A stretch of 24,000 bases of DNA from an uncultured Turneriella sp. (GTDB lineage Bacteria; Spirochaetota; Leptospiria; Turneriellales; Turneriellaceae): contig CAYOZO010000005.1 in the NCBI GenBank assembly GCA_964408405.1, positions 42,837 through 66,836 of the forward strand, in the 5' to 3' direction. How positions within the stretch are numbered: position 1 is the first letter of the stretch; every line of letters starts with the position of its first letter. Below the pieces are notes generated by a model that did not search any database, was not told the DNA's origin, and worked only from the letters and a program-made list of their open reading frames with translations. The position numbers were made by a program, and so were the translations under genes. This document shows positions 7,948-24,000 of this stretch, in pieces.

Positions 7948-9390
7948 ATGAGATTTACTCTCGCCGCCAAGCTCGTCTCATTCATCGGCGCTCTTATGCT
8001 GGCGCTTACCAGTTCGCTAGCCTATCTATCGTGGCATCGGGGATTTAAGAACCTCGAAGAGCGGTTCGGCCTTGTGTTAAAGCACATTGCGATCAACACA
8101 GCTCTGCAAATTGATGGGTATCAACACAGCCGAATCCGAAGTTCTGCGGATAAGCATTCCAGGGAGTTTAAGAAAATACATGCCCTCATGCAAAAGGCGA
8201 TGCTCGCTAACTATTTAAGTCCGGAAACATTTTATACGTTCCAGCTGGGCGAAGACCATGCCCTGCACTTTGCGGTGATGCTGCATAAAGAAAAATTTAT
8301 CGGCGACAGGTACGATCCGCCTGCGCTGAACAAAGCGTATTTCATGCGCGTCATGGCAGGAGAGAGCGTTTTTACGCAAATCTACACCGATGCACACGGT
8401 ACCTGGATTTCAGGGCTCGCTCCTATTTTTACCGGAGATAAGGTCACCGGCGTCGTTGAGGCAGATTTTCGGCTCGAAAAGTTTGTCGAAGAACTTAGGC
8501 AGCAGACATTAGAAATTGTCGAATATTCGCTCGTTGTTTTTATCGTGGCCGTGCTTTTGGCATTCTGGTTCATGCGCCGCATCACGAATCCAATTAAAGT
8601 GCTGAGCCGGGCAGCGGTCGCCGTTGCCGACGGGACTATCGGCAATCCGGTTTCTGTTACGTCGCACGATGAAATTGGTGAGTTACAGCAATCGTTCAAC
8701 ACCATGCTAAAATCGATCAGCGAGCGCTATCTCATGCTGAAATATCTGTCGCCTCACACCAAGCGGATGATCGAGCAGGAAATCCACGATCCGCAGGCAT
8801 CTGCTGGCAGAACTCGCGACGTGGTTCTTCTCTTCAGCGATATCCGGGGCTTTACGGGCTATAGCGCTAACCGCGATCCACGGGAAGTAATTGAAAACCT
8901 CAATACATTGCTCGGCAAACAAGCGGAAATCATTGAATCGTATGGCGGTGACATCGACAAATTTGTCGGCGACGAAGTGATCGCAGTATTTGAGGGAGAA
9001 AAGGCCGAGGAGCTCGCACTGCGCGCAGCGGTCACAATCCAACGCATGGTCACAGAAAACCTATCGAACCCTGAATTTGACATGAACCTGCGTGTCGGTA
9101 TCGGTATTGCATCCGGAGAAGTCTTCATGGGTAATATCGGCTCTGTCGGGCGTAAGGATTTTACCGTCATCGGCAGCAACGTAAACCTTGCCTCGCGTAT
9201 CTGCTCCGCCGCAATGGCCGGGGAAATACTCATGAGCTCCCATGTCTTTTATAAGATTGAGGCTAACAGCAACTTACCTGCAGAATTACAGATAACGCTG
9301 GTCAAGAAGGGAAATCTCAAGGCAAAGGGATTTCCAGACTTAATACCGGTTTATAGCTGCGAAATTGCGTTCGCCACCGCCGAACATTAG
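7948..9390 (+). CDS. membrane adenylate/guanylate cyclase with periplasmic sensor region, HAMP and class III cyclase domains
   Basis: N-terminal TM, a ~165-aa extracytoplasmic region and a second TM. HAMP-like segment (RRITNPIKVLSRAA...HDEIGELQQSFNTM). Class III core motifs VVLLFSDIRGFTGYS, KFVGDEVIAVF, RVGIGIASGEVFMGNIGS and FTVIGSNVNLASRI. Confidence 0.9.
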   Translation: MRFTLAAKLVSFIGALMLALTSSLAYLSWHRGFKNLEERFGLVLKHIAINTALQIDGYQHSRIRSSADKHSREFKKIHALMQKAMLANYLSPETFYTFQLGEDHALHFAVMLHKEKFIGDRYDPPALNKAYFMRVMAGESVFTQIYTDAHGTWISGLAPIFTGDKVTGVVEADFRLEKFVEELRQQTLEIVEYSLVVFIVAVLLAFWFMRRITNPIKVLSRAAVAVADGTIGNPVSVTSHDEIGELQQSFNTMLKSISERYLMLKYLSPHTKRMIEQEIHDPQASAGRTRDVVLLFSDIRGFTGYSANRDPREVIENLNTLLGKQAEIIESYGGDIDKFVGDEVIAVFEGEKAEELALRAAVTIQRMVTENLSNPEFDMNLRVGIGIASGEVFMGNIGSVGRKDFTVIGSNVNLASRICSAAMAGEILMSSHVFYKIEANSNLPAELQITLVKKGNLKAKGFPDLIPVYSCEIAFATAEH

Positions 9391-9532: not shown

Positions 9533-10819
9533 TCATGCTGCGCGCTCGCGCGTCGCCAGTGCCGGGCCGAAGATTGTTCCCAGTTTTTCATTGGCGATTA
9601 GTCCGTCGGCATCTGCGGAAAACTCGGGCTTTAGGCGGTTGACGAAGTACATTTCTATCTCCCCCTTATTTTTTGCGACAAGTCGGCCGCGGTATTCGCA
9701 TTCAAAGTAATCTTTGATCAGATCATACGTAGCGCGGGAGACATTTACCCTGCCGGCTGCCCCTGAGCTTTCCATGCGGCTCGCGACGTTGACAGTATCG
9801 CCCCAGACGTCGTAGCTAAACTTTTCGCTGCCGATCACCCCGGCGACCAGGGGGCCCGAGTGCAGGCCAATACGAATCTTGGTTCCATTGGCGTGGCCTG
9901 AGGACTCTTGTGCCATGGCCGACTGCATGCGCAATGCCGCCAGCGCCGCTTTTACGGCATGCCAAGGGTCTTCGACAGGCAGGCCGGAAGCGGCCATGTA
10001 CGAATCGCCAATCGTCTTGATCTTTTCCATTCCCAAATCGCGCACGATGTTATCGAATGATTTGAAACAGCGGTCGAGTTCGGAAACGAGTTGTGAGGGG
10101 CTAAGCTTTTCAGCGTACTGCGTGAAGCCGACCATATCGGTAAAAAGTACGGTGGCAGAATCGTAATGCACGGGCTCGACGCGATCGTTGCGCTTCAGTT
10201 CGTCGGCCACATGGTTGGGCAGAATATTGCGCAGTAGCCGGTCGGATTTATCGCGCTCTTCGTTAAAATGGTTCTTCAAAATTATAACCGTAGCTGCGCA
10301 CAGAATCTGTACAAACAGAAACTGACCGAACACGTCACTGAACCGGTCTTGCGGTGTGGCGTATGCCACGATATATTGAGGGAAATAGATCTCTACTGAG
10401 AAAACCGCTACGGTGAAAAGCACGCTCAGCAGCGCAGCGTAGAGCGTCGTGCGGCTATTGCGTGATAAAATCGTTGAAATCAGCACCAGGGGGATGTAAT
10501 AGTAGTGCGCGCCGCCGAGGCTGCCGGCATTGCCGAGTATGTTGAAGAACAGAAATGCCTCCATAGTCAACACGAACGGCCAATAAAGGACGCGGTAAAT
10601 ACTAAAGAAGCGCGATGAGGCGTAATAAGCCAGAAACAGCACGCCGGTTCCCAGATTCAGCACAAAGAGCCAGCCATAATTCGAAGAAGGATTCAGCGAT
10701 CCCAGAGTATTTGAAATGCCGTTGAGGAGAGCAAACGAGTTAAAGAGACGATGCTCCAGTGACCAGTGCCTGGCGCTGCCGATGAGGCGGTCAATCGCAG
10801 TGGCAATTATCTTGTGCAT
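9533..10819 (-). CDS. membrane adenylate/guanylate cyclase (polytopic N-terminal domain + class III cyclase domain)
   Basis: About six N-terminal TM segments. Catalytic motifs ATVLFTDMVGFTQY, KTIGDSYMAASGLP, IRIGLHSGPLVAGVIGSEKFSYDVWGDTVNVASRMES. Start placed at the internal ATG (MHKIIATAI, 10819) to avoid overlap with the upstream small gene. The tracker start at 10891 remains possible. Confidence 0.85.
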   Translation of the reverse strand: MHKIIATAIDRLIGSARHWSLEHRLFNSFALLNGISNTLGSLNPSSNYGWLFVLNLGTGVLFLAYYASSRFFSIYRVLYWPFVLTMEAFLFFNILGNAGSLGGAHYYYIPLVLISTILSRNSRTTLYAALLSVLFTVAVFSVEIYFPQYIVAYATPQDRFSDVFGQFLFVQILCAATVIILKNHFNEERDKSDRLLRNILPNHVADELKRNDRVEPVHYDSATVLFTDMVGFTQYAEKLSPSQLVSELDRCFKSFDNIVRDLGMEKIKTIGDSYMAASGLPVEDPWHAVKAALAALRMQSAMAQESSGHANGTKIRIGLHSGPLVAGVIGSEKFSYDVWGDTVNVASRMESSGAAGRVNVSRATYDLIKDYFECEYRGRLVAKNKGEIEMYFVNRLKPEFSADADGLIANEKLGTIFGPALATRERAA

Positions 10820-10874
10820 ATGAGTATGTCGCAGGGGGTGTCTGAATCTTACAGCAATTGCGCGTGTAACAGAC

Positions 10875-11108
10875 TTATCGCTCCCTCGCAAAACACCGAC
10901 CGTGGATATTGACGGCGTAGGGGACTAAAAAACTCAACGCTGCGGAGATCCATCGGCTGGTGTCCATTTGGCCACTGGCGAGGGCCTGGCCGTGATTGAT
11001 AAGTAATAGTAAGGTGCCCACAATGAGCGCAAGGCGCAGCGCGGCAGGGGCAAGGTTGCGATCTAAGAGGCAGACCACGTATTGCTTCAGGCTTGACATG
11101 CTGGCCAT
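10875..11108 (-). CDS. small two-TM membrane protein resembling the NrtS (nitrate/nitrite transporter NrtS) family
   Basis: The core ALRLALIVGTLLLLINHGQALASG...LSFLVPYAVNIHG matches my recollection of the NrtS-family pattern (VVGT-L-LINQGD ... L-YLVPY-VS). The start is uncertain (11138, 11108 or 11099). 11108 was chosen to limit overlap with the divergent coaB region. Confidence 0.55.
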   Translation of the reverse strand: MASMSSLKQYVVCLLDRNLAPAALRLALIVGTLLLLINHGQALASGQMDTSRWISAALSFLVPYAVNIHGRCFARER

Positions 11109-11146
11109 TTTTTTGTAAGAATTTCCCTCATACAGCACTAATTACC

Positions 11147-11833
11147 ATGGAATTAAAGCCAGAATCCAGGGCTTTGAGTGGCGTACGCTTCCTGGTTACC
11201 GCCGGGCCGACACGTGAGGCTTTAGACCCGGTACGCTACCTCAGTAACCACTCAAGCGGCAAGATGGGATTTGCTATAGCAAACCTGCTGCATAGCGCGG
11301 GTGCGGATGTCCACCTGGTAACGGGCCCGGTCAGCTTGCAGACGGTTCTTCCCGAAGAGCAGATTACGCGTGTTGAGTCAGCGCTCGAGATGTTCGAAGC
11401 CTGCGAGGCGAGATTCGGAGAGATTGACATCGGCATCTTCGCAGCTGCCGTGGCCGATTACCGGCCGGCAGAAACTTCCGCAAAAAAAATCAAGAGGAGC
11501 AATGGTTCGGTCATGCTGGAACTCGTGCCTAATCCAGATATTGCCGCTGCCTTTGGCCGTGTCAAGAAAGCTAGGCAGCTATCCATCGGCTTTGCCCTCG
11601 AAACAGATAACCTGCTCAGGAACGCACACATAAAACTGAAAAAGAAAAACCTGGATTTCATCGTCATCAATTCGGCCTGTGAACCCGATTCCGGTTTTGG
11701 TACAGACACGAACCGGATCAGCATTCTGGATTCGTCTGGCAGTATCGAGGACTTTCCGCTAAAACAAAAAAGCGAAGTGGCGGGCGATATTCTGGGTAGA
11801 ATTATCGCGCTGTATCTTCTGAAGGCAGCTTAA
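11147..11833 (+). CDS. coaB: phosphopantothenate--cysteine ligase, stand-alone CoaB domain
   Basis: FLVTAGPTREALDPVRYLSNHSSGKMGFAIA is the hallmark CoaB (Dfp C-terminal half) nucleotide-binding motif. AAVADYRP and KIKR motifs follow. No flavoprotein (CoaC) half is attached. Start moved to the ATG at 11147 (MELKPES). Confidence 0.85.
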   Translation: MELKPESRALSGVRFLVTAGPTREALDPVRYLSNHSSGKMGFAIANLLHSAGADVHLVTGPVSLQTVLPEEQITRVESALEMFEACEARFGEIDIGIFAAAVADYRPAETSAKKIKRSNGSVMLELVPNPDIAAAFGRVKKARQLSIGFALETDNLLRNAHIKLKKKNLDFIVINSACEPDSGFGTDTNRISILDSSGSIEDFPLKQKSEVAGDILGRIIALYLLKAA

Positions 11834-11836
11834 GAT

Positions 11837-12619
11837 ATGCGATCCAAACAGATCACGGGGAAGCGCCCAATTTCTACCTTTACGCTCAATGAGGGGAATT
11901 ACACTGCAGCATTCGCCGAGACCCCGGCTGACATCGAAGCGGCGCAACGCCTGCGCTACAGGGTGTTCAATCTCGAGCTGGGTGAAGGGCTTCCCGAATC
12001 GCATCTGACGGGCCGGGACCAGGATCTTTACGACGCACAGTGCGCGCACTTGATTATCAGGCATAAGGCCTCGGGAGAAGTTGTCGGCACATACCGCATG
12101 CAGAGCTATCATGAAGCGGTGGAAGCCGAAGGCTTCTACTCTGCCAATGAATTTGATCTTAGTGGAGTGCCGCCGGAAATATTGGGCCGCACGATGGAAG
12201 TCGGTCGTGCGTGTATCGATGCGCAGCACCGCAACAATCGGGTACTCTTTATGCTCTGGAAGGGGCTTGTTGCCTACCTGCTTTACAACCGGCTGCGCTA
12301 CCTATTCGGTTGTTGCTCGCTAACATCTCAGGACGAATCGGAAGGCATGCAGCTCATGCAACAGCTGCTCAACGATGGGCACGTACGCGGGGACTTCTGC
12401 GTCGCCGCGAAGCCGGGTTATGCAATTTCTGGTGCGCCAAGCGGGAAGATTATCAAAACTCCAAAGCTCTTTCAGGCTTACATCAATTATGGGGCGAAAG
12501 TCTGCAGTCAGCCAGCGATTGACCGCACCTTCGGGACAATCGATTACCTGGTGATTCTAGACATTGAAACGGTGAGCCCCTTTACCAAAAATTTATTTTT
12601 CCCCCCGGAGTACCAGTAA
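11837..12619 (+). CDS. GNAT-family N-acyltransferase of the OlsB / N-acyl amino acid synthase type (Pfam Acetyltransf_5-like)
   Basis: AETPADIEAAQRLRYRVFNLELGEG...DLYDAQCAHLIIRHKASGEVVGTYRM and EVGRACIDAQHRNNRVLFMLWKGL...LFGCCSL match the conserved blocks of OlsB/'hemolysin-like' acyltransferases. The gene starts 3 nt after the coaB stop. Confidence 0.85.
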   Translation: MRSKQITGKRPISTFTLNEGNYTAAFAETPADIEAAQRLRYRVFNLELGEGLPESHLTGRDQDLYDAQCAHLIIRHKASGEVVGTYRMQSYHEAVEAEGFYSANEFDLSGVPPEILGRTMEVGRACIDAQHRNNRVLFMLWKGLVAYLLYNRLRYLFGCCSLTSQDESEGMQLMQQLLNDGHVRGDFCVAAKPGYAISGAPSGKIIKTPKLFQAYINYGAKVCSQPAIDRTFGTIDYLVILDIETVSPFTKNLFFPPEYQ

Positions 12620-13147
12620 ATGATTCTTCCTTTGATTAAACAAAACCTGCTGCTGATTGAGCAAGGTCGGGAAATTTTGCAAGCTCTGCCCGATGGCATT
12701 TATATCCGATCTAATGAAGAAACCTATGGGGCCAGCCTAGGCGGACATTTTCGCCATATCATCCAGCATTATGAAGCTTTTTTGCGCGATTTACCCGGTG
12801 GCATCATTAATTATGACAGGCGTGATCGCACATCTTCTGTCGAAACAGATCGCGTCGATGCCGATGTTGCACTGCGGCAAATAGCCGGGGAACTCGAAAC
12901 GCTTTCGGCCGAAGACCGCGAAATTATTATCATCCAAAACCATAACCCTGCTGAACCTGAACGCGGAGTCCGCTCGACACTCAGCCGCGAACTCACATTT
13001 CTCGTGAGCCACACCGTGCACCATTTTGCCTTGGTTGCGGTGGCGATGCACCTCAATGGTCGTGCCACGCCGCGTTATTTCGGATATGCCCCTTCGACAA
13101 TTTACTACCTTGAATCGCAGGTGCAACACGCTACGCTGACAAGCTGA
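12620..13147 (+). CDS. DinB/YfiT-like metal-dependent four-helix-bundle protein (DinB_2-like)
   Basis: Zero-nt gap to the upstream gene. A His triad pattern typical of the DinB superfamily is present (HFRHIIQHYEAFL near the N-terminus, SHTVHHFALV near the C-terminus). Confidence 0.75.
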   Translation: MILPLIKQNLLLIEQGREILQALPDGIYIRSNEETYGASLGGHFRHIIQHYEAFLRDLPGGIINYDRRDRTSSVETDRVDADVALRQIAGELETLSAEDREIIIIQNHNPAEPERGVRSTLSRELTFLVSHTVHHFALVAVAMHLNGRATPRYFGYAPSTIYYLESQVQHATLTS

Positions 13148-13152
13148 ACGGC

Positions 13153-13884
13153 ATGTGTACGGTTTCCTGGAAGTTTTCTCAGGCGGGATACGACCTCTAC
13201 TTTAACCGGGACGAAAAGCTTACTCGCCCACGTGCGTTACCTCCAGAAGAAAGAGCGGTAAACGGGGTAAAAGCTATTGCAGCGACAGATGCGCTTGCGG
13301 GTGGCACATGGCTTGTCACGAATGAATTTGGGAACACCGTGTTCTTGTTGAATCGATATCCGACCACAGGCGCCCCCATGGCCACGAGCCGGGGCATGCT
13401 TGTCTTGAACCTCGCGGATGTGGCAAATCGCGCAGACTTTGAAGAGCGTATATTCTCCGCTGCGCCTGGCAAATATTCTGCGTTCACCTGCGGGCTACTA
13501 ACACCCACCCACGAAGCGTCTGTGTATTCATGGGATGGGCGCAATCTAAGACCGCTGCAGCCGCGTCAGACCTTCCTGACGTCGTCGAGCGTCAATTCAG
13601 AGATCGTAGAAAAGACGCGCGTCGCCTTCTATCGGCTCATTCGGCCAAACACCGCTCGAGACTTTAGCGCCTTACACCGCTCGCATCTGCCAGAAAAGGG
13701 CGGCTCCTCAGTGTGCATGCACCGGGATGATGCGCAGACCGTGAGTTATAGCCATATCCGAGTGAGGTCGCGCTTTAGCCAGTTTTGCTACCTTGAAGGT
13801 CCACCGTGCTGTGGCGAAGGCATGGGTATCTTAAGTCTCAGGCTAAAGAAAGATCTCGCTTTTACTCCATCGCCTATGGGCTGA
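13153..13884 (+). CDS. NRDE (TANGO2/DUF833) family protein
   Basis: Starts MCT (Cys2, Ntn-hydrolase-like). It contains the eponymous motif in YFNRDE at residues 16-21. Gap of 5 nt to the upstream gene. Confidence 0.8.
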   Translation: MCTVSWKFSQAGYDLYFNRDEKLTRPRALPPEERAVNGVKAIAATDALAGGTWLVTNEFGNTVFLLNRYPTTGAPMATSRGMLVLNLADVANRADFEERIFSAAPGKYSAFTCGLLTPTHEASVYSWDGRNLRPLQPRQTFLTSSSVNSEIVEKTRVAFYRLIRPNTARDFSALHRSHLPEKGGSSVCMHRDDAQTVSYSHIRVRSRFSQFCYLEGPPCCGEGMGILSLRLKKDLAFTPSPMG

Positions 13885-13888
13885 TTGG

Positions 13889-15478
13889 ATGGCAGAATTT
13901 CTTAGCATCGCATTTTTTACTTTTCTCAGCGAAGACCTGGCATGCATTACCGCCGGTAGCCTTGCTGCACGCTCAGACATTCAGCTTTGGGTGGCAATCG
14001 TTGCCTCGTACGTCGGCATTGTTGTAGGGGATTTATTACTCTACCTGGCCGGCTACTCTGGGGGCGCACTTTTGCTCAAGACTCGCTGGGGCAGCCGTTT
14101 TCTGGCAGGAGAAAGGGTTATCCGGGCTCAGCAATGGCTGAAGAATTCCGGGGGTAAGGTGGTGATCCTCAGCCGCTTTGTTCCGGGAACACGGTTGCCA
14201 ACCTACGTAGCTGCGGGAATCTTGCGAATGCCCGTGACACGATTTACGGTGCTGCTGCTCATCGCTGCGCTTTTCTGGACGCCTATTCTGGTTGTCGCCT
14301 CGTACCTGTCGGGTACGTTGCTTTTAGACGCCTTTTCGGGCGCCAGTGCTATTACAAGAGGAGTAGCCCTGGCAGGCATCGTCGCTGTGGTATGGCTCGC
14401 GTCACGCCTTGTCCTATCCTTTGCTACCTGGCGTGGGCGAAGGTTGCTCTATTCACGCATTGAACGACTGCTGCGTTGGGAATTTTGGCCAATGTACTAC
14501 CTTTATGTTCCGGTAGGTTTCTACCTGCTGTACCTGGCCATCAGGCATCGCCAACTGGCGGCATTTACGGCGTGCAACCCGGCGATCTATGCGTCCGGTA
14601 TGCGCGGTGAATCCAAGTCGCAGATTTTGGCCGGGCTCAAACCTTCGGCCGGCAATTTTGGCAGTGTGGCACCGTTCATCCTGATCAGAGCAGAGCTACC
14701 TTACAGCGAGAGAAAAAAGCTGGCGCTGGCCTTTTTGCGAAAACTTCCGCAGAAGTACCCGGTGGTCATCAAACCAGACGTTGGCGAGCGTGGCAGCGAT
14801 GTAAAAATTGTGAGAAGTCAGGACGAACTTGAAGCGCATCTCCGCACAAGCGAGCAGGACGTGATTCTGCAGCAATACATTCAGGGGCATGAATACGGCG
14901 TCTTCTACTACCGCTACCCATCTGCCTCTATGGGAAGAATTTTCGCTATCACCGACAAGCGGCTGATAACTCTCACGGGCGATGGTTTGCATACGCTTGA
15001 AGAACTGATACTTCGCGATAAGCGCGCGGTGTTAATGGCCAAATTCCATCTGGAGCAGCACCGCAACGAACTGGATTACGTCGTGCCTAAAGGAGCAGCC
15101 TATCCGCTTGTGCAGCTGGGTACGCATTGCAAGGGTGTGCTCTTCTTAGACGGCAGTCACCTCATTACGCCAGAGCTCACGCGGGCCATCGATCGCATCA
15201 GCCAGAACTATGTGGGCTTCTTTTTTGGCCGCTACGATATTCGTGTACCCAGTGAAAAAGATTTGCGCGCCGGAAAAAACCTCCGGGTACTGGAACTCAA
15301 CGGTGTCACTTCAGAGGCCACGAGTATGTACGATCCGCGGCATTCGCTCTGGCACGCCTACAAAATCTTGTTTGCGCAGTGGCGTATTGCGGTCGAAATT
15401 GGCCTCGAAAATATCAGGCGTGGTGCAAAACCGGTTGGGTTAAAAACGCTCCTGCAGATGGCTTTCCGAGGCACATGA
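13889..15478 (+). CDS. fusion protein: N-terminal DedA/VTT (SNARE-associated) membrane domain + C-terminal ATP-grasp amide ligase domain
   Basis: The N-terminal ~190 aa has DedA-like features (EDLACITAGSLA, RFVPGTRLPTYVAAG, multiple TMs). The C-terminal ~300 aa has ATP-grasp features (YPVVIKPDVGERGSDVKIV, ILQQYIQGHEYGVFYYR, LRVLELNGVTSEATSMYDP). Confidence 0.8.
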   Translation: MAEFLSIAFFTFLSEDLACITAGSLAARSDIQLWVAIVASYVGIVVGDLLLYLAGYSGGALLLKTRWGSRFLAGERVIRAQQWLKNSGGKVVILSRFVPGTRLPTYVAAGILRMPVTRFTVLLLIAALFWTPILVVASYLSGTLLLDAFSGASAITRGVALAGIVAVVWLASRLVLSFATWRGRRLLYSRIERLLRWEFWPMYYLYVPVGFYLLYLAIRHRQLAAFTACNPAIYASGMRGESKSQILAGLKPSAGNFGSVAPFILIRAELPYSERKKLALAFLRKLPQKYPVVIKPDVGERGSDVKIVRSQDELEAHLRTSEQDVILQQYIQGHEYGVFYYRYPSASMGRIFAITDKRLITLTGDGLHTLEELILRDKRAVLMAKFHLEQHRNELDYVVPKGAAYPLVQLGTHCKGVLFLDGSHLITPELTRAIDRISQNYVGFFFGRYDIRVPSEKDLRAGKNLRVLELNGVTSEATSMYDPRHSLWHAYKILFAQWRIAVEIGLENIRRGAKPVGLKTLLQMAFRGT

Positions 15479-16335
15479 AATACTCGTGGCTATGCATTTT
15501 TGCTCTGCTCTTGTCAGGTGCGTGCTTTCCGCACCAAAAGCGCATCGATGCATACCGCGAAAAAATTGAAAAGAATTATCCCCAGGCCTCGCGAATCCTT
15601 GAAGCAAACGCGCGCAAGGCACATTACGTGCGAACAGGAACAGGGACACACCTGATTGTTTTCATTCACGGATCGCCCGGCTCTTGGGATGCATTTGCCG
15701 AATATCTGGCAAATCCAGAGCTGCAGCAATTAGCCCGAATGGTATCAGTCGATCGCTTAGGTTTTGGGAAATCTGAACCCATGGCTGCTGAAAAATCTCT
15801 GGCGGCCCATTGTTCATTGATTAAGGGAATTATTCTCGAAGAAAGAATGCTCTCCCCGCCGGGAAAAATAATTCTCGTCGGGCATTCCTTTGGTGGGCCT
15901 GTCGCGGCGCGCCTTGCGGCCGATGTAACCACAGGCATCACCGATCTTCTGCTGCTTGCGCCCTCTGTGGACCCCGAGCTCGAAAAAATTGAGTGGTACC
16001 AGAGAATTGCAGATTGGCGTGTAGTGCGCTGGCTTCTACCGCAATCTCTTGACCACGCTAATCAGGAAATATTGCCGCTCCGGGCCGAATTGGAAAAGAT
16101 GAAGCCACTTTGGGGCCAGATCAGGGCCGAAGTCACTGTCGTGCACGGCACAGACGATGCCTTGGTGCCTGTCGGGAATGTCGACTTTCTTCGTAATGTG
16201 CTTGTACACAAACCAGCTCATTACATAATTATCCCCAACCAGGGACACTTTATCCCCTGGGAGAGGTCCGAAATCGTCACCGGTCTTCTGTTGAAAACGC
16301 TGTCGCCGGTGAATGCTGAAGGGAAAGGGCCATGA
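15475..16335 (+). CDS. alpha/beta hydrolase lipoprotein
   Basis: ATGA overlap with the upstream stop. Signal peptide with lipobox LSGAC. HGSPGS oxyanion region, GHSFGG nucleophile elbow and C-terminal GHFIPWE His motif. The tracker's 32-aa N-terminal extension overlaps the previous gene and was trimmed. Confidence 0.8.
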   Translation: MKYSWLCIFALLLSGACFPHQKRIDAYREKIEKNYPQASRILEANARKAHYVRTGTGTHLIVFIHGSPGSWDAFAEYLANPELQQLARMVSVDRLGFGKSEPMAAEKSLAAHCSLIKGIILEERMLSPPGKIILVGHSFGGPVAARLAADVTTGITDLLLLAPSVDPELEKIEWYQRIADWRVVRWLLPQSLDHANQEILPLRAELEKMKPLWGQIRAEVTVVHGTDDALVPVGNVDFLRNVLVHKPAHYIIIPNQGHFIPWERSEIVTGLLLKTLSPVNAEGKGP

Positions 16336-16898
16336 ACCAAAATGCTCCTAGTCTGTTTTCCAATGACTTGCAGGCTCTGAATAATGCGCTATTTGCTTTC
16401 GCACGCAAGCGTGTCCAGAGCGAAGATGACATCCTGGATCTCATCCAGGATACGCTGACAGAATACCTCGCGAACAGAGAGAAGTTTCGTAACGCCTCAA
16501 GCGAGCTTACCTACCTGACCGGGATATTGCGCAATAAAATATTTGAACTATATCGCCGCCAGGGTCGCGAGTTGACGCCGGGGCATGAAACGATCGACGC
16601 AATGCTAGACAGCGGGACGTCATTGCACTCGCAGTATGTTTCATCGGATGCTGTACACGAGAAATTGGCATCCGATGACGTTACTCATCGCATCCAAAAG
16701 TGCATCCGGCGGTTAAAGCCGCCGTATTTTCAGGCCTTCGTCCTGAGGGAGGTCGAGGAGCTCAAGACTGATGAAATTTGTAAGATTATGGGGGTTAGCA
16801 TCACCAACTTAAACGTAATACTGCACAGGGCGCGTAAGCAACTGCAGTTGATGCTGAAAGCAGAGGGAATCAAAGATGCAAGTTCCGGTCTCACGTAA
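16332..16898 (+). CDS. ECF-type RNA polymerase sigma-70 family factor
   Basis: ATGA overlap with the hydrolase gene. Region 2 DLIQDTLTEYL. Region 4 HTH TDEICKIMGVSITNLNVILHRARKQL. Confidence 0.85.
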   Translation: MNQNAPSLFSNDLQALNNALFAFARKRVQSEDDILDLIQDTLTEYLANREKFRNASSELTYLTGILRNKIFELYRRQGRELTPGHETIDAMLDSGTSLHSQYVSSDAVHEKLASDDVTHRIQKCIRRLKPPYFQAFVLREVEELKTDEICKIMGVSITNLNVILHRARKQLQLMLKAEGIKDASSGLT

Positions 16899-17139
16899 AC
16901 CCATGCTCAACTGTCGCGATACCGGCACTTTGATCTCTTTGGCGCGCGATCACCGCGTAGGCGTATGGCGTAAAATACAGATTCGTATGCACGTCGCAAT
17001 GTGTGATGCCTGCCGCAAGTATTATAAATTTGTCGAACGCATCGGCCTCAAGGCTAGGGAAGATTCGGCCGTTGACAAAATGCCCGAGGCGATGCACAAA
17101 AAAATCGAAGCGAGGCTGAAATCATGGAACCCAAAGTGA
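16876..17139 (+). CDS. soluble zinc-binding anti-sigma factor (ZAS, RsrA-like)
   Basis: gaggga SD lies 7 nt upstream of the ATG at 16876 (alternative ATG at 16903). HxxxCxxC motif (HVAMCDAC) plus an upstream Cys 26 residues before the His. There is no TM segment in the 87 aa. Confidence 0.7.
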   Translation: MQVPVSRKPMLNCRDTGTLISLARDHRVGVWRKIQIRMHVAMCDACRKYYKFVERIGLKAREDSAVDKMPEAMHKKIEARLKSWNPK

Positions 17140-17369
17140 CAATCTATTCAAAAGACTACTGTCCGTATTGCATCCGCGCAAAGGAATTTTTTGCGGAACG
17201 GAATATTGCTTACCGCGAGGTTGATGTTACGGCAGATCCAGGAAAGTTGGAAGAACTCAAGGCGCTCACCAAGCACATGACTGTTCCGCAAATCTTCATA
17301 GATAATGAATTTGTGGGCGGCTATACAGATATGATAGCCAAGGTGAAATCCGGAGAATTGAAACTCTGA
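17124..17369 (+). CDS. grxC: glutaredoxin (GrxC-type, CPYC active site)
   Basis: 81 aa with VTIYSKDYCPYCIRAKEFF, TVPQIFIDNEFVGGYTD and the GG motif. It overlaps the anti-sigma gene by 16 nt. Confidence 0.9.
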   Translation: MEPKVTIYSKDYCPYCIRAKEFFAERNIAYREVDVTADPGKLEELKALTKHMTVPQIFIDNEFVGGYTDMIAKVKSGELKL

Positions 17370-17911
17370 TTCGCTCGCTTTTCCTGGCGCTGCTTATTCA
17401 GCTGCCGATCATTGCCTAAGAAAAGCCAGACGCCATATCGAACTGGAGCCTTGGGGCAGAGGTGCAAGTCTATCCGGCGGGCGTGATCGCTGGTGCCCGG
17501 GCGGAGTATAGCCTCAATGGGGTAAACACCATGAACTTTCGCGCAGGCTATAACCTGGCGCAGCGGCATGATTTCGGTAAACACGATAACGAGCACGGTG
17601 GCGGCTGGGGCGGTGGCTTTGGCTACAGGCATTACGGATTAACTCGTCGGTTACCATTTTTTTTCGGCGCAAGGTTCGATTTCTGGCAGCTCAGTATCGA
17701 TTGGAGAAATAGTCCAGGAGCTTCCGGAACATCCGGGATTTCGGTATTCCAACCGACAGGCGAAGCTGGCTACGAGGTTTTCCTGGGTGAAAGTGTACGG
17801 CTTCAAATGGCATTAGCTTTAGGTGCCGAAATTAATGCCATTACAATTGGTGACGCGGTGGGCGAAGGCGCAATTCTGCTCGCGGGATTGTCTGTGCTGT
17901 ACGCCTTGTAG
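17366..17911 (+). pseudogene. putative outer-membrane beta-barrel-like protein; signal-peptide-like leader separated from the body by an in-frame TAA (17417-17419)
   Basis: Frame 2 reads ...LIRSLFLALLIQLPIIA-TAA-EKPDAISNWSLGAEVQVYPAGV... The tracker ORF (17462-17911, GTG start) is the downstream part. No ATG/GTG/TTG exists in the leader between the upstream stop (17306-17308) and the TAA. The body has alternating beta-strand-like patterning and Gly/aromatic richness. Confidence 0.45.
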
Positions 17912-18014: not shown

Positions 18015-19003
18015 CTAACCAACCCCGGGGTAAAAATTATCCACATCAGCCGCGTCGACGCGATGCGGCAGCAGGGCTCGCATTGCCTCGTCCTGCTGGC
18101 ATAGCGGCAATTTGGCGAAGAGGTAGCGCAAATACATCCACGGCTCCAGGTCATTGGCCTTCGCCGTTTCAATCAGCGAATAGACGAGCGCGCTCGAATC
18201 GGCGCCGCTTCAATCGCATATAGCTTGCGAATTTCGTCTACAATCTGCGACGCGAAGGAATCAGCTTTCGTGAGCTTAATGACTTCAACAAACTTGCGAC
18301 GCGTATGTGCCTAAGCGGACAGGATGGCCGCAAAGCATGTGGCGGAGCGCGTTTCGCTGTATTGAAAAAATCGAATTTTTTTCGTTGCAAACGGCTGACG
18401 CAAAGACGACATCCGTGTCGGCGTCAGCTTCTCGCCCTCCGTGGCAAATACAAACATCCACGACTTCTGCGTGTTCGTTCGATCTGTTTCATTTAGAACC
18501 TGCAATGGAGTTTGCCAAGAGGCGCAGCTCGCTTCGCTCACTGAACATCGGCGAGGATTACCTTTTCTGCAAGTAAATCCTGCCAGATGAGTTGCTCAAT
18601 CCTATCGTACTGCTCATAGAATTGGATCTGCCGGCTGTTAGCCATGCTGGCTCCCAGCCCAGCTGGTTTGAAAGATTTGCTCTGGAAATATCAATCCCAT
18701 AGCGCTGAAAAATTTTTTCTTGCCGGTAGTACGGCAGATGGTCACAGAATTTGTTCGTGAGCACGTGTGCGAAAAGCCCCGGCGTTGCGATAGATTTTGG
18801 CAGAATCTCCGGCTGTCAGCCAAGAGGCGCCAGCCTATTGGCGGCATGGGAGCGATTTTGAATTCGGCGGATTTATTGCCGTTCAGGCAGCTTTTACATG
18901 TGTACTTCGGGCGGATGTGCTTGTGGACGACAATCTTGACAGGAACAATGCCGAGTTTTTCCGTAATTTCGCGGTCGATTTCCACGAGTTCGCTAGCACC
19001 CAT
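18015..19003 (-). pseudogene. IS66-family transposase (TnpC) pseudogene, frameshifted and internally deleted
   Basis: Minus-strand fragments: VPVKIVVHKHIRPKYTCKSC (zinc-finger region), DHLPYYRQEKIFQRYGIDISRANLSNQ, LNETDRTNTQKSWMFVFAT (DDE first Asp region), AHTRRKFVEV...LYAIE, and GADSSALVYSLIETAKANDLEPWMYLRYLF (IS66 C-terminal domain) ending at the TAG at 18015-18017. The pieces lie in different frames, and the total length is far below an intact ~500-aa TnpC. Confidence 0.8.
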
Positions 19004-19039
19004 TCCGACCTCGACGGCGACACCACACGCACAAATTTT

Positions 19040-19191
19040 TCCGCCTCTTGTTCGGCCATGCGCTTCTCTTTTGCCAGGTGATATTGCAGCGCCGAAACCT
19101 TGATGCCGTGCTCCTTGCAGTAGCTAATCATCGTCAGGCCGCTCGCACGGTAACGTTCCGTATGCGTCACATCGAATTTGCTTCTGTTCAT
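19040..19191 (-). pseudogene. IS66 accessory protein TnpA-like N-terminal fragment
   Basis: MNRSKFDVTHTERYRASGLTMISYCKEHGIKVSALQYHLAKEK is HTH-like, as in IS66 orf1 products. The ORF then reads through into out-of-frame tnpC sequence. No tnpB-like segment is present. Confidence 0.55.
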
Positions 19192-19250
19192 GTCCGAAGA
19201 TCGACAATAGTGTCAGGTCACCGAACCCGGTGTTGCTTTGACGGTTACCA

Positions 19251-19736: not shown

Positions 19737-20216
19737 CTACGGCACGAGATTCACACGCCGCTGCGGTGAAGAGTGCGTCAAATTACCAAACTGGTCATAA
19801 CCCCAGACCGCCCAATACCGATCGGTCCCGTTTCCCGGGTCGGCTGTGGCAGAGACGAAGTCTTTGGTGTTCTGGTCATACGTGTGCATGGTAGATCGGG
19901 TTTGTGAGCCGCGGACGAACCCTGAAAGACCATCCCGGCTACCTGCGATGAAAGCCTGTGGGTTTGAGATAGTCTTGCCTGAAGTTTCAATCTTGGCATT
20001 AAACAATCCAAATACGACATACTTCACTTCGCTCGGGACAGAATAGCTGAAAGAACCGCCCGCATTCACACTCCCACCATCAAGCGGCAAAATCAACCCA
20101 ATCTCCTCCGTGCCCGCGAAGATGGGCGTCTTCGGCTGCTCGGCCACGTTATTGATACAGCCGGCAAGCGTTCCGGCGAGAATGGCTGCTGCGAAGATGT
20201 GTGTTAGCTGTTTCAT
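19737..20216 (-). CDS. hypothetical lipoprotein
   Basis: Signal peptide with lipobox LAGC (MKQLTHIFAAAILAGTLAGC). 159 aa. It starts 10 nt downstream of the upstream gene's stop. No family recognised. Confidence 0.7.
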   Translation of the reverse strand: MKQLTHIFAAAILAGTLAGCINNVAEQPKTPIFAGTEEIGLILPLDGGSVNAGGSFSYSVPSEVKYVVFGLFNAKIETSGKTISNPQAFIAGSRDGLSGFVRGSQTRSTMHTYDQNTKDFVSATADPGNGTDRYWAVWGYDQFGNLTHSSPQRRVNLVP

Positions 20217-20226
20217 AGGTGCTCCC

Positions 20227-21513
20227 TCAGAAGTTCAGGCGGGCGCCGCCGCCGATGGAAATGTTGGTCAGGCTCAGGTCGCTCGATACCGAAAGCGGTT
20301 CACCCAAAATGCCCTGGCTGACATAGGTGCCGCGCGTGACGGTTTTGGTGAAAGCATTGTAGCGGGCTTCTAGAAAGAGGCTCACCTTGAGTTTGGGAAA
20401 AAACTCCACCCCCGCCTTAACGCCCAGCTGCAGCAGGTCGAACGACGCAAGTTTTTCTTTGGTTTCGTCGGTACCCTTCAGGCGGTAGTCGCTGACGCGC
20501 GTGTAGCCGCCGAAGACGCCGACGTAGGGCGAAATGTACGAGTTGATCGCCAATGGTTCAACAGCGATGCCGAGCAGGTACGCATTGAGCAGGTACTCGC
20601 GCGACTGCGAAAGCGAACCGAACGGGCTCGAGTATGAATACGAATGGTCCCACCCGGTGTTCAGGCCATAGCTGAAATCGGCAGTCCAGCGGCCAAACGT
20701 GATGCCCAGCTGTCCCATGAACAGGTTGCCCTGCTTAAGCGTTGAATTCACCGGAAACAGGCGTGCATAACCCGCACCGACAAATACCTGTATCGCTTCG
20801 CGCGCGGGTGCAAGGGTTTCGGTCAATCGTTCGGTCTCACCCGCGCGAATGGTCGCATTGCGCTCCGCCGATTCGTAACCCGGTTTGCGTAGAAAGATGC
20901 TGTGGTTGCCCGCGCTCAGTTTGTACTCCACCACCGGTGTGCTGCCGACAACGATACCATCGACCAATAGCTCTGCACCCTCGGGGCTTGAAGTCACGGT
21001 CAGCCGGCCGCTCTTGCCGCCCGCAATCGCCGAGGCCATCGCGAGCGACGCTTTGCCCGCTTCGTCGAGTACCGTTGCAAGGGGAGCTGAAACACTGCGC
21101 CCCTCAATCACCGCACCGGTCGCGACATCGACCGCGCGCAACGTGACGTTGATGCGCTCGGCGTCGCCGGTAAAGCTACCCATTAGCAGCACATCGGCAC
21201 GCAGCAATTTGCCGGCACGCGCCACCTGCCCGCTGTCTACTGCCCCACTCTGCTCCAGCTCAATCTCTTTGAGCACCTGCTTGAGTTCGCTGCGCTCGAG
21301 CACGGTAATTTCACGCGACGAGCTGAGCGTACCGCTCACCGATTCGGGCAATGCAGTCCTGAGGTAATCAAGGCTGCGCGAGGCGGAGCTATTGCTGAAA
21401 TTGACGACGGCAACGGTCTTTTTGGCTGCAGCGTGGCCTGCGACGGTAATCAGCAGTGTGGCAAGGCAGGCAACAAGGCTCCTGGCAAAGAAACCTAATC
21501 GGGGCAAACGCAT
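20227..21513 (-). CDS. outer-membrane protein with CsgG/LpoB-like N-terminal domain, PEGA domain and C-terminal beta-barrel
   Basis: Signal peptide, then KKTVAVVNFSN...ITVLERSELKQVLKEIELEQSG...LLRADVLLMGSF (CsgG-like pattern). PEGA motif in LTVTSSPEGAELLVDGIVVGSTP. The C-terminal ~190 aa has alternating beta pattern ending ...GGGARLNF, with a terminal Phe typical of OMP barrels. Confidence 0.8.
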   Translation of the reverse strand: MRLPRLGFFARSLVACLATLLITVAGHAAAKKTVAVVNFSNSSASRSLDYLRTALPESVSGTLSSSREITVLERSELKQVLKEIELEQSGAVDSGQVARAGKLLRADVLLMGSFTGDAERINVTLRAVDVATGAVIEGRSVSAPLATVLDEAGKASLAMASAIAGGKSGRLTVTSSPEGAELLVDGIVVGSTPVVEYKLSAGNHSIFLRKPGYESAERNATIRAGETERLTETLAPAREAIQVFVGAGYARLFPVNSTLKQGNLFMGQLGITFGRWTADFSYGLNTGWDHSYSYSSPFGSLSQSREYLLNAYLLGIAVEPLAINSYISPYVGVFGGYTRVSDYRLKGTDETKEKLASFDLLQLGVKAGVEFFPKLKVSLFLEARYNAFTKTVTRGTYVSQGILGEPLSVSSDLSLTNISIGGGARLNF

Positions 21514-21557
21514 GGTAGGCAGAGCATGGCGCCGAGACGGCAGCGGTCAAGCCGATT

Positions 21558-23339: not shown

Positions 23340-23340
23340 A

Positions 23341-23967: not shown

Positions 23968-24000
23968 AGGCCTGAGCGTTGCGGGGCGCAGTGCCCAGGC

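Follow-up and report, generated by a model that had tools for sequence, protein, structure and literature searches.

We tentatively propose that five adjoining genes at positions 11837-16335 of an uncultured Turneriella sp. are this lineage's form of an accessory module, widespread but undescribed, in acyloxyacyl-aminolipid (ornithine-lipid-type) metabolism, with the mechanism given below as part of the proposal. That the module acts on aminolipids of the OlsBA or OlsF type is, in our judgement, highly probable, and ligation at the head-group carboxylate specifically is somewhat less likely than not. An earlier note made from the DNA alone did not recognise this gene combination as a described system, and we found no description of the module in the searchable literature. 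The terms DinB, DedA, and ligase are absent from a 2026 aminolipid review (PMC12971839). The DinB, NRDE, DedA::ATP-grasp, and hydrolase proteins lie outside every described aminolipid pathway.

Gene organization and family distribution

The five genes are all on the + strand of the window (the whole 24,000-nt stretch of DNA that was analysed) and are spaced by 0, 5, 4, and -4 nt (ORF list and junction check). The open reading frames, the gaps of 0, 5, and 4 nt, and the ATGA overlap given in the earlier note were borne out by the coordinates, and all five of its domain calls were confirmed with Pfam and NCBIfam. The genes and their packing are thus real, but the boundaries drawn around them were arbitrary, with tightly coupled flanks omitted: the packing continues into a CoaB gene upstream and into ECF sigma factor, ZAS anti-sigma factor, and glutaredoxin genes downstream, giving a run of nine genes with eight junctions each ≤5 nt. 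The grouping of the cassette genes is far beyond chance, because the same genes are found in the same order in relatives of several phyla.

The DedA::ATP-grasp family is large and uncharacterised, being present in at least 575 species genomes and forming 1111 clusters at 50% identity (1111 ligase representatives, counted at E ≤ 1e-30). Three ligase architectures were found, namely hydrolase-DedA-ATP-grasp (the majority), DedA::ATP-grasp, and ATP-grasp alone. In the 54 species-level loci whose flanks were complete, DinB was present in 41, the OlsB-like GNAT in 34 (orthologues of 41-70% identity adjoining the module), an OlsA-like gene in 29, and NRDE in 20; unbiased clustering of neighbours placed the same families at the top. 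The order GNAT-(OlsA)-DinB-NRDE-(ABH)DedA::ATP-grasp on a single strand is seen in Acidobacteriota, Gemmatimonadota, Calditrichota, Balneolaceae/Rhodothermia, Spirochaetota, and others. Co-localisation of the GNAT, NRDE, and fusion genes in other genomes, on which the earlier note had staked its reading, occurs in 12 of the 54 loci.

The OlsA-like acyltransferase of the 29 loci is encoded between GNAT and DinB (135 bits, full-length, to OlsA HMMs). In four Desulfobacterales loci an OlsF-like synthase (395 bits) replaces OlsB/OlsA, and stand-alone ligases are found directly beside OlsB-OlsA, as in DinB-NRDE-ATP-grasp-OlsB-OlsA with an LpxO/OlsC-like hydroxylase (L087), DinB-ATP-grasp-OlsB-OlsA (L090), and ATP-grasp-OlsB-OlsA only (L091), the smallest recurring set. 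The association with a synthase therefore persists through changes of synthase type, ligase architecture, and gene order. OlsA was found neither in the window nor in the 21.6 kb around the closest full relative (L005), and it is only from this lineage that OlsA is missing in cis. The claim that the cassette has no OlsA/PlsC partner and so departs from the canonical route fails for the family; because all three ligase architectures adjoin aminolipid synthases, that argument is limited to this lineage. Nor is the pathway self-contained, as had been supposed: the OlsB/OlsA/OlsF neighbours across relatives indicate an add-on to the canonical route. In about one third of the loci, no aminolipid synthase lies within 7 kb; among them are two of Gemmata algarum with DoxX-DinB-NRDE-ligase only (L085 and L086) and one with the ligase alone (L088).

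Proteins of the cassette

The first gene (11837-12619) encodes a GNAT of the Acetyltransf_5 family (PF13444, 109 bits), which is homologous to OlsB over its full length. Its matches to two OlsB equivalog HMMs (135 and 126 bits; NCBIfam cut-offs 320 and 350) agree with its earlier description as OlsB-like, and the GlsB model gave 25 bits only. Because the protein scores under every OlsB equivalog cut-off, the amino-acid substrate is not fixed by homology. It is predicted to form a lyso-aminolipid, namely an N-(3-hydroxyacyl) amino acid.

The DinB-fold protein (12620-13147; PF05163, 30 bits), which follows without a gap, is the most faithful partner of the ligase. All 54 orthologues share R123, E124, H131, H134, and H135 without exception, and H43 occurs in 49 of them and H46 in 51; a metal site is suggested by the conservation of the His and Arg residues. 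No signal peptide was seen in its sequence.

The NRDE/TANGO2-family protein (13153-13884, gap of 5 nt; PF05742, 37 bits) begins with Met-Cys. Its AF2 model (pLDDT 92.7) gave as top Foldseek matches human TANGO2 (8sv7/9bwa), isopenicillin-N acyltransferase (2x1c/2x1d/2x1e), CV2077, and bile-salt and penicillin V acylases. Among these fold relatives are Cys-Ntn enzymes whose reactions cleave or exchange acyl amides. The cassette protein shares its fold, its N-terminal Cys, and the NRDE motif with TANGO2, isopenicillin-N acyltransferase, and bile-salt hydrolases, which backs its earlier assignment as a Cys2 Ntn-type protein and leads us to predict a Cys-Ntn amidase or transacylase. C2, R19-D20-E21, H175, S177, H178, C188, H190, R191, and C219 are invariant, and N18 is nearly so. 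Identity to human TANGO2 is just 16-17%, the Pfam alignment covers residues 1-149 only, and an invariant His/Cys cluster of its own, in the C-terminal half, sets the cassette subfamily apart from the TANGO2 family. For TANGO2 itself, whose substrate is unknown, a role as a Cys-Ntn hydrolase of fatty-acid derivatives has been proposed, as has binding of acyl-CoA (PMC13044924, PMC11867700).

The fusion gene (13889-15478) starts 4 nt after the NRDE gene. Its DedA/VTT domain (aa 1-150, 13889-14338; PF09335, VTT_dom, 62 bits) has UptA as its best NCBIfam match (59 bits against a cut-off of 250) and carries the invariant residues S14, E15, D16, D48, R96, and R102. Part of the family does without DedA, the stand-alone ligases having no such domain. 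The membrane anchor that follows (aa 152-220, 14342-14548) consists, according to the AF2 model and hydropathy, of a TM helix, the sequence WEFWP, and a Pro-kinked hydrophobic helix; W197, E198, F199, W200, P201, and P208 are invariant, and the anchor is kept by every ligase architecture, including the stand-alone forms of 354-358 aa. Its position directly before a very small N-domain suggests a membrane-borne substrate.

The remainder of the fusion protein (aa 222-529, 14552-15478) was assigned as an ATP-grasp carboxylate-amine ligase domain from fold and HMM matches. No Pfam or NCBIfam ATP-grasp model reached its cut-off on this ligase, and the matches to ATP-grasp_3 and RimK were sub-threshold. 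The top Foldseek matches of the AF2 model (pLDDT 87.5) were the GshF ATP-grasp domain, the cyanophycin synthetase G domain, and Ddl/VanA (probability 1.0, E-values 7e-8 to 1e-5, at an identity of 13-20%), and an HMM search against the PDB returned the same relatives. The conserved Lys and E-x-N of GshF, cyanophycin synthetase, and Ddl are also found here among the invariant, catalytic-type residues K295, D297, E335, R448, D450, and E469-L-N471. These neighbours in sequence and fold all activate amino-acid or peptide carboxylates. In the cassette family their usual N-domain is replaced by the membrane anchor, and most members also have DedA and hydrolase domains.

The last gene (15475-16335), whose ATG overlaps the stop codon of the fusion gene (ATGA), encodes an alpha/beta-hydrolase (Abhydrolase_1, 71 bits; Hydrolase_4 (S33), 41 bits) with a signal peptide, a lipobox-like LSGAC, and the nucleophile Ser138 within GHSFG. 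In support of the start at 15475, the L005 orthologue, likewise a separate gene 3 nt after the fusion gene, aligns from residue 1. Membership of the hydrolase in the cassette is backed by fusion proteins: an N-terminal alpha/beta-hydrolase is fused to DedA::ATP-grasp in 55 of 85 family ORFs. From the signal peptide in this cassette and from the N-terminal anchor and positive-inside pattern of the fused forms (hydropathy), the hydrolase is predicted to lie outside and the ligase inside.

Proposed mechanism and alternative readings

As for the acyl acceptor, the nucleophile, and the direction of flipping, we infer the following. The OlsB-like GNAT would N-acylate an amino acid with a 3-hydroxy fatty acid. 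In most relatives the adjacent OlsA would add the second chain; here either OlsA would have to be encoded elsewhere or the substrate would be the lyso form. The ATP-grasp domain, held at the cytoplasmic face by its Pro-kinked hydrophobic helix, would phosphorylate the free carboxylate of the head group and then join an amine (an amino acid, a taurine-like amine, or ammonia), giving a head group that is extended or amidated and altered in charge. The DedA domain would bring this product to the outer leaflet, where the exported hydrolase could remove the added group or an acyl chain and so tune the level of the modified lipid. DinB with its putative metal site and the predicted Cys-Ntn NRDE protein may be optional cytoplasmic partners acting on the same amide-linked lipid, or suppliers of the nucleophile. 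The idea of making inside, flipping, and trimming outside, already put forward in the earlier note, is consistent with the predicted topology.

The same pathway could run on another ligase chemistry, which we regard as unlikely yet the best of the alternatives. The ligase might make a dipeptide or unusual amino acid before OlsB acts, or might activate a fatty-acid carboxylate as an acyl-phosphate, forming an N-acyl amide or re-esterifying a lyso-aminolipid, so that hydrolase, DedA, and ligase would make a recycling loop like LplT-Aas. Such a loop would be expected to have this very make-up, with a flippase-type domain and an ATP-using enzyme joined to a periplasmic hydrolase; the fold matches include ester-making VanA-type relatives, and an ester-forming ligase could replace the OlsA missing from the window and L005. 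ATP-grasp enzymes are able to activate fatty acids, as cited for acyl-histidine in Legionella (PMC11631085). Against these variants, OlsA and the ligase are both kept in most loci, which argues that the ligase is no substitute; the closest folds use amino-acid rather than fatty-acid carboxylates, and a soluble dipeptide ligase would not need the invariant membrane anchor.

The recurring redox and thiol neighbours are left unexplained by the lipid model. DoxX is near the module in 14 of the 54 loci, and AhpC/redoxin (L085, L086), rhodanese, YHS, and Grx (L005), and ZAS genes are near it in individual loci. A thiol/redox-stress module, in which the ATP-grasp domain builds or attaches a cysteine-containing peptide in the manner of glutathione synthetase, DinB is a thiol S-transferase, NRDE trims the conjugate like ergothioneine/mercapturate Ntn hydrolases, DedA exports it, and the aminolipid link reflects a shared stress regulon, would account for them, and the GshF glutathione-synthetase domain is the top fold match. 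Characterised DinB-fold enzymes are largely thiol-dependent, and the window itself holds the ZAS anti-sigma factor, the glutaredoxin, and the cysteine-using CoaB. We nevertheless consider this reading improbable: each redox gene is infrequent and varies by locus, OlsB/OlsA/OlsF is the commonest partner after DinB, the minimal trio of L091 has neither a redox gene nor DinB, and the GNAT is of the long-chain acyl-ACP OlsB type and no acetyltransferase.

It is very improbable that a UptA-like DedA recycles undecaprenyl phosphate for a Ddl-like ligase that builds a peptide on an envelope polymer; UptA as best DedA match and Ddl among the top folds would fit, but the UptA score is far below its cut-off, mur, glycosyltransferase, and polyprenyl genes do not recur in the neighbourhoods, and many family members stand beside OlsBA without DedA. 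Equally remote is mere packing for compactness or co-regulation without a shared pathway, which the unconserved flanks and the differing make-up of the module among loci would allow, but against which stand the order kept across phyla, the hydrolase-DedA-ligase fusions, and the persistent synthase link.

Related systems and genomic setting

The proposed accessory step on aminolipids has counterparts in chemistry and in logic. OlsB/OlsA and OlsF ornithine-lipid synthesis is linked to the module by genes of the same operon in relatives, and the window differs in having no OlsA. In the cerilipin of Gluconobacter cerinus, taurine is joined to the ornithine-lipid carboxyl in an ATP-dependent step for which the gene is described as unknown, and Ser-Gly and Orn-Ser-Gly head groups exist in Bacteroidota, for which the review names no extension enzyme (PMC12971839). 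Both are the reaction type proposed here, an amide at the head-group carboxylate, but carriers of the module are mostly in phyla other than those of the makers of these lipids.

MprF is an aminoacyl-PG synthase fused to a flippase, and a periplasmic hydrolase partner (AcvB or PA0919) reverses the modification. The logic matches, with cytoplasmic head-group addition fused to lipid translocation and an exported hydrolase, but there are no homologous domains (Pfam), the chemistry is that of ATP-grasp and not of aminoacyl-tRNA, and the lipid is probably an aminolipid and not phosphatidylglycerol. In the NAGGN pathway, Ngg combines a GNAT with an ATP-grasp domain, AsnO is an Ntn amidotransferase, and the product is a soluble acetylated dipeptide osmolyte. 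The module resembles it in an N-acylated amino acid, ATP-grasp extension at the carboxylate, and a Cys-Ntn enzyme; the module would use a long-chain fatty acid as its acyl group and has a membrane-anchored ligase, and a stand-alone family member matched the Ngg model TIGR03103 weakly (25 bits against a cut-off of 569).

The CoaB, sigma/anti-sigma, and glutaredoxin genes on either side, all on the + strand, are as tightly packed as the cassette but not conserved with the module. The CoaB-only gene (phosphopantothenate-cysteine ligase domain; 11093-11833; PF04127 DFP, 223 bits) aligns to the CoaB half alone (positions 179-391) of the CoaBC model and ends 3 nt before the GNAT gene. It likely starts at the ATG at 11147 and probably heads the transcription unit; near the module in only two other loci (L005 and L062), it does not belong to the conserved set. 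A promoter scan that was overall at chance level gave a promoter-like TTGACA-18-AAGAAT at 11093-11122. Downstream, the ECF sigma factor gene (16332-16898; Sigma70_r2 and r4_2) overlaps the hydrolase stop (ATGA) and likely encodes the regulator of the unit in this genome; of 85 sequences examined, 12 have an ECF sigma gene close to the module. It is overlapped by 23 nt by the gene of a soluble zf-HC2 (ZAS) anti-sigma factor (16876-17139; NF052368, 49 bits; weak RsrA match), which has an H-x3-C-x2-C motif at residue 39, like thiol-redox sensors. The glutaredoxin gene (17124-17369; PF00462, 81 bits) closes the tightly coupled run, shares 16 nt with the anti-sigma gene, and is also found downstream of the module in L005.

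The nine genes, including the ECF sigma/ZAS pair and the glutaredoxin, are probably co-transcribed in this genome, and a thiol-sensing regulator transcribed with the module would suggest its induction by envelope or oxidative stress. Because the grouping is conserved across many phyla, usually beside ornithine-type aminolipid genes, the module is most likely an add-on by which these phosphorus-free membrane lipids are modified, flipped, and trimmed.

Gene content and borders of the run

Nine + strand genes follow one another in unbroken succession from 11093 to 17369 of the window. A CoaB-only gene (11093-11833) ends 3 nt 5' of the gene for an OlsB-like GNAT N-acyltransferase (11837-12619), which carries Acetyltransf_5 and is followed by DinB (12620-13147) with a gap of 0 nt, by the TANGO2-family gene NRDE (13153-13884) after 5 nt, by the DedA::ATP-grasp fusion (13889-15478), hereafter the ligase, after 4 nt, and by an alpha/beta-hydrolase (15475-16335) at a spacing of -4 nt. 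The last three genes, encoding an ECF sigma factor, a soluble zf-HC2 anti-sigma factor (ZAS), and a glutaredoxin (Grx; together 16332-17369), overlap one another, and the sigma factor gene also overlaps the hydrolase gene at the hydrolase stop (ATGA); the overlaps further downstream are 23 nt (anti-sigma) and 16 nt (glutaredoxin). The anti-sigma factor has an H-x3-C-x2-C motif (HVAMCDAC). An earlier note had singled out the five genes from GNAT to hydrolase as a cassette. The genes, their spacing (0, 5, 4, and -4 nt), and every domain assignment were borne out, the last by both Pfam and NCBIfam, but the borders were drawn too narrowly, as the packing runs on to CoaB and to the sigma/anti-sigma/glutaredoxin genes. 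Judging from gene spacing, we infer that the run is a transcription unit; a promoter and terminator scan of the window gave signal no better than shuffled sequence and did not set the limits of the unit. Neither Rfam (gathering thresholds) nor tRNA scanning returned a match anywhere in the window.

CoaB, the sigma/anti-sigma pair, and the glutaredoxin were considered as core parts of the system and dropped, since they are near the module in this lineage alone. The CoaB gene encodes, as a stand-alone protein, the cysteine ligase half of CoaBC without the CoaC domain; its listed TTG start falls on a promoter-like TTGACA hexamer, so the true start is probably the ATG at 11147. Elsewhere, CoaB is close to the module only in the closest full relative, locus L005, and in L062. 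The pairing of a CoA-pathway gene with a TANGO2 homologue is curious in light of the reported link between TANGO2 and acyl-CoA. The ECF sigma-ZAS-Grx arrangement at the end of a lipid operon resembles a thiol-stress switch of the SigR-RsrA type.

Several other features surround the run. Just 5' of it lie two membrane-bound class III adenylate/guanylate cyclases (7948-9390, +; 9533-10891, -), and the second has homologues adjoining the module in six further loci, among them MAGs of Leptospiraceae and Blastocatellia (e.g., L003, L005, L007, L050, and L071). Further 5' are cytochrome c genes (3196-4016) and, at 4100-6698, a Pyr_redox_2 flavoprotein gene overlapping a gene for a polyferredoxin-like membrane protein (Fer4). 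The latter pair lies between CoaB and GNAT in L005, indicating that it belongs to the syntenic block of the lineage. Directly 3' of the glutaredoxin gene, a Gly/aromatic-rich ORF of 149 aa without a Pfam match (17462-17911) may encode a small outer-membrane protein, and short overlapping ORFs on both strands with a zf-IS66 fragment (18300-19200) look like a decayed IS66-family element just 3' of the unit. The GC content climbs from ~0.51 to ~0.60 across 20000-24000, where the - strand encodes a CsgG/PEGA lipoprotein, an MptE-like protein, and a HAD hydrolase; this shift may mark a boundary between regions of different origin.

The ligase family and its association with aminolipid synthases

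The DedA::ATP-grasp protein search retrieved >4000 cluster representatives, most of them ~860 aa, a length accounted for by an N-terminal alpha/beta-hydrolase fusion. This fusion is direct evidence that the separate hydrolase of the window works with the ligase. When one genome per species was scanned, the family was found in at least 575 carriers, including Acidobacteriota, Gemmatimonadota, Verrucomicrobiota, Balneolaceae/Rhodothermia, Calditrichota, KSB1, Desulfobacterales, Spirochaetota, and others; the nearest relatives among the matches listed were Spirochaetota and Leptospiraceae MAGs. Queried exhaustively by phmmer, the ligase part on its own gave 1111 representatives (50% identity clusters, E<=1e-30) in three architectures: stand-alone (~350-400 aa), DedA-fused (~520-600 aa), and hydrolase-DedA-fused (~800-900 aa). 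All three have an invariant WEFWP motif and a Pro-kinked hydrophobic helix just before the ATP-grasp domain. Hydrolase-DedA-ligase was the only combination seen; no fusion of PlsC, DinB, NRDE, or GNAT with each other or with the ligase was found.

The AF2 model of the fusion protein (pLDDT 87.5) matched the ATP-grasp domain of the bifunctional glutathione synthetase GshF, the G domain of the cyanophycin synthetases CphA1/2, and Ddl at a Foldseek probability of 1.0, and a profile search of PDB sequences returned the same set (GshF, cyanophycin synthetases, and D-Ala-D-Ala/D-Ala-D-Lac ligases). These enzymes phosphorylate the carboxylate of an amino acid or peptide and then join an amine or hydroxyl to it. 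Residues K295, D297, E335, D450, and E469-L-N471 of the ligase are invariant across 25 diverse sequences and, by analogy, are assigned as the putative ATP-binding Lys and Mg-binding acidic/Asn residues. The ligase did not reach the thresholds of the curated ATP-grasp families in Pfam and NCBIfam (RimK, ATP-grasp_3, Ddl, GshB, and CphA), scoring 21.5 bits against 23.2 for ATP-grasp_3 and 19.7 against 21 for RimK, with NCBIfam matches far under their cut-offs.

The GNAT matches Acetyltransf_5 (PF13444) with 109 bits, and its residues 21-248 align to positions 22-264 of the 278-position OlsB HMM. It scored 135 and 126 bits to the NCBIfam OlsB models, below the equivalog cut-offs of 320 and 350; it is a member of the OlsB family, at a score that does not support substrate identity with characterised OlsB.

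The neighbourhood was analyzed by tblastn of the window proteins against 84 fetched loci around ligase relatives and, separately, by assumption-free clustering of all neighbour ORFs, and the two agreed on the same partner families. Of the species-level loci, 54 have full flanks; 41 of these contain DinB, 34 an OlsB-like GNAT, 29 a 0.8-kb gene in the gap from GNAT to DinB, and 20 the window-type NRDE. The partners lie mostly 5' of the ligase gene and share its strand, and the order reads GNAT-gap gene-DinB-NRDE-ligase. A PF01553 member, the gap gene aligns over its full length to the models of OlsA, the lyso-ornithine-lipid O-acyltransferase (135 bits). No PlsC/OlsA-type gene occurs anywhere in the 24-kb window; the absence of an OlsA partner, to which the earlier note had drawn attention, is therefore true of the window and L005 alone and not of the family. 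L005, a Spirochaetota MAG locus, has all five window genes at 42-70% identity. The product of an OlsBA-type pathway would be an ornithine or other acyloxyacyl aminolipid.

The form of this association varies. In four Desulfobacterales loci, the ligase adjoins an OlsF-like bifunctional synthase (395 bits, positions 25-569 of a 570-position model). The stand-alone ligase lies directly 5' of OlsB-OlsA in three of the five loci with usable flanks: L087 reads DinB-NRDE-ligase-OlsB-OlsA with gaps of 4-14 nt and then encodes a YHS protein plus an LpxO/OlsC-like hydroxylase, L090 reads DinB-ligase-OlsB-OlsA, and L091, in an alphaproteobacterium-like context, has ligase-OlsB-OlsA only. In Pyrinomonadaceae loci, a canonical TANGO2 paralogue (268 bits) replaces the window-type NRDE. 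The association of synthase and ligase thus survives changes in the type of synthase, in the architecture and gene order of the ligase, and in the type of NRDE. Judging from the stand-alone loci including L091, the smallest recurring set is ligase, OlsB, and OlsA; it is often joined by DinB, NRDE, DedA, the hydrolase, and DoxX, all of which are optional. Exceptions without a nearby synthase are Gemmata algarum JC673 and L086, both with DoxX-DinB-NRDE-ligase, and L088, with a lone ligase near an MMPL transporter.

At L088/L089, a stand-alone ligase with no aminolipid synthase nearby neighbours an MMPL/RND transporter as well as a TP_0789/DUF1329 lipoprotein-carrier-like gene, a different lipid-transport context. 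A small membrane protein of the DoxX family is found beside DinB or the ligase in 14 of the 54 loci (including L003, L005, L007, L016, L040, L043, L059, L085, and L086). YHS-domain proteins (L004, L005, L056, L086, and L087) and AhpC/redoxin genes (L085 and L086) also recur, and the lipid model does not explain the recurrence of these three families. In 12 loci, mostly of Acidobacteriota (including L013, L014, L019, L024, L025, L050, L071, and L074), the gene that follows the ligase encodes a ~245-aa protein that contains an HELGH motif and weakly matches M48 peptidases.

NRDE, DinB, DedA, and the hydrolase

Sequence searches with GNAT, NRDE, and DinB against the PDB gave nothing significant, and the fold search alone was informative. 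NRDE matches the TANGO2 Pfam family with 37 bits (cut-off 22.6); C2, right after the initiator Met, is invariant, as is R19-D20-E21, with N18 almost so. Its model (pLDDT 92.7) has the alpha-beta-beta-alpha (Cys-Ntn) fold and found the crystal structures of human TANGO2 first (8sv7 and 9bwa), followed by acyl-CoA:isopenicillin-N acyltransferase, CV2077, and bile-salt and penicillin V acylases; NRDE is a candidate for amidase or acyl-transfer activity. Published views of TANGO2 have yet to converge: it binds acyl-CoA (PMC11867700), and a role as a Cys-Ntn hydrolase acting on fatty-acid derivatives, with an unknown substrate, has been proposed (PMC13044924). Outside the Pfam-aligned TANGO2 region, H175, S177, H178, C188, H190, R191, and C219 are invariant in the NRDE subfamily; this His/Cys cluster (175-219) may bind a metal or contribute to the active site.

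DinB (Pfam match 30 bits, cut-off 23) keeps H131, H134, and H135 in 54 of 54 orthologues, H43 in 49, and H46 in 51. These five His residues, conserved together with several Arg, form a putative metal site. The homologue search with DinB gave few matches and no fusions.

The VTT domain of DedA scored 62 bits against a Pfam cut-off of 33.9, and E15, D16, D48, R96, and R102 are invariant, so that the membrane-embedded acidic and basic residues are kept. The hydrolase matches Abhydrolase_1 (71 bits), with a GHSFG nucleophile elbow containing Ser138 and HGSPG at position 65. Its N-terminus, MKYSWLCIFALLLSGAC, has a hydrophobic core and Cys17 in a lipobox-like LSGAC, which differs from the canonical [LVI][ASTVI][GAS]C in having Ser at position -3. 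Export of the hydrolase is likely from this sequence, and its lipidation is uncertain. Hydropathy and the positive-inside rule, applied to the fused family members, predict an N-terminal anchor and place the acidic hydrolase domain outside, and the Lys/Arg-rich DedA loop and the Arg-rich segment before the ligase inside. The signal peptide that the window's separate hydrolase carries is in keeping with this predicted topology.

A candidate system for aminolipid head-group modification

From its gene content, the set appears best classed as a membrane-lipid head-group modification system joined to an aminolipid pathway. OlsB, with OlsA in most genomes, would make an acyloxyacyl aminolipid with a free head-group carboxylate, which the membrane-anchored ligase would activate and join to an amine, altering the size and charge of the head group; DedA would carry the modified aminolipid outward, and the exported hydrolase would trim it. 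We consider it highly probable that the module acts on lipids of the OlsBA/OlsF type. That the ligase performs carboxylate ligation specifically is a more tentative proposal, somewhat short of an even chance. We regard as rather unlikely the most far-reaching version, in which the ligase would be the missing class of amide-forming enzyme for aminolipid head-group carboxylates, DedA and the outside hydrolase would complete a synthase-flippase-hydrolase system for phosphorus-free lipids, and NRDE would be a lipid-amide Cys-Ntn enzyme.

According to a 2026 review, the transfer of taurine to the carboxyl of ornithine lipid is ATP-dependent and its gene is unknown, Ser-Gly and Orn-Ser-Gly head groups are listed with no extension enzyme named, and ornithine-lipid synthases are estimated to occur in about half of sequenced bacteria (PMC12971839). 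Cysteine-containing aminolipids are found in Desulfatibacillum (PMC11181052); a connection of the module with them was considered and set aside. Full-text literature searches for ATP-grasp with ornithine lipid, DedA with aminolipid, DedA/ATP-grasp fusions, and DinB, TANGO2, and DedA jointly found no description of the module. Its proposed design matches that of MprF with a periplasmic aminoacyl-PG hydrolase, but its domains are unrelated: neither the MprF-type synthase (DUF2156) nor the MprF flippase domains had a Pfam match in any of the nine proteins of the run, and the likeness is one of logic only. In its proposed chemistry, the module is akin to the NAGGN pathway (GNAT, ATP-grasp, and Ntn enzyme) transferred to lipids.

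The ligase might instead act before OlsB, or might activate fatty acids for amide or ester formation, with a precedent in Legionella (PMC11631085); the system would then be a recycling loop. A thiol/redox module could be read from DinB, DoxX (14/54 loci), AhpC, rhodanese, the glutaredoxin, the ZAS anti-sigma factor, and the GshF-like fold, but the redox genes are each rare and variable and are absent from the minimal trio. A C55-P or cell-wall role would draw on weak generic similarity only; in the equivalog test for the undecaprenyl-phosphate transporter UptA, the DedA domain scored 59 bits against 250. Chance co-location is excluded, being countered by the fusions and by synteny across phyla.

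Ornithine lipids influence stress tolerance, antibiotic tolerance, and host signalling, and several aminolipid head-group modifications have no known gene, one of them ATP-dependent and enzymatically characterised in the 1970s. The module occurs widely, with carriers in at least 575 species genomes and >1000 clusters at 50% identity; it adjoins the synthases and includes the kind of enzyme that such a reaction needs, which makes this gene question approachable by a simple co-expression experiment. Through it, the human disease gene TANGO2, whose function is disputed, also gains a bacterial relative in a fixed genomic context alongside enzymes of N-acyl amide lipids, as independent support for action of the TANGO2 family on fatty-acid amides or thioesters. 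If head-group modification by this module is true, the ligase would represent the kind of activity that underlies taurine-ornithine lipid and aminolipids with peptide head groups, and NRDE would give the TANGO2 family its first natural substrate class. The synthase-flippase-hydrolase system would then parallel MprF/AcvB, as a second design of the MprF type in which the making, flipping, and trimming of lipid head groups are tied together with unrelated parts, often in one fused polypeptide.
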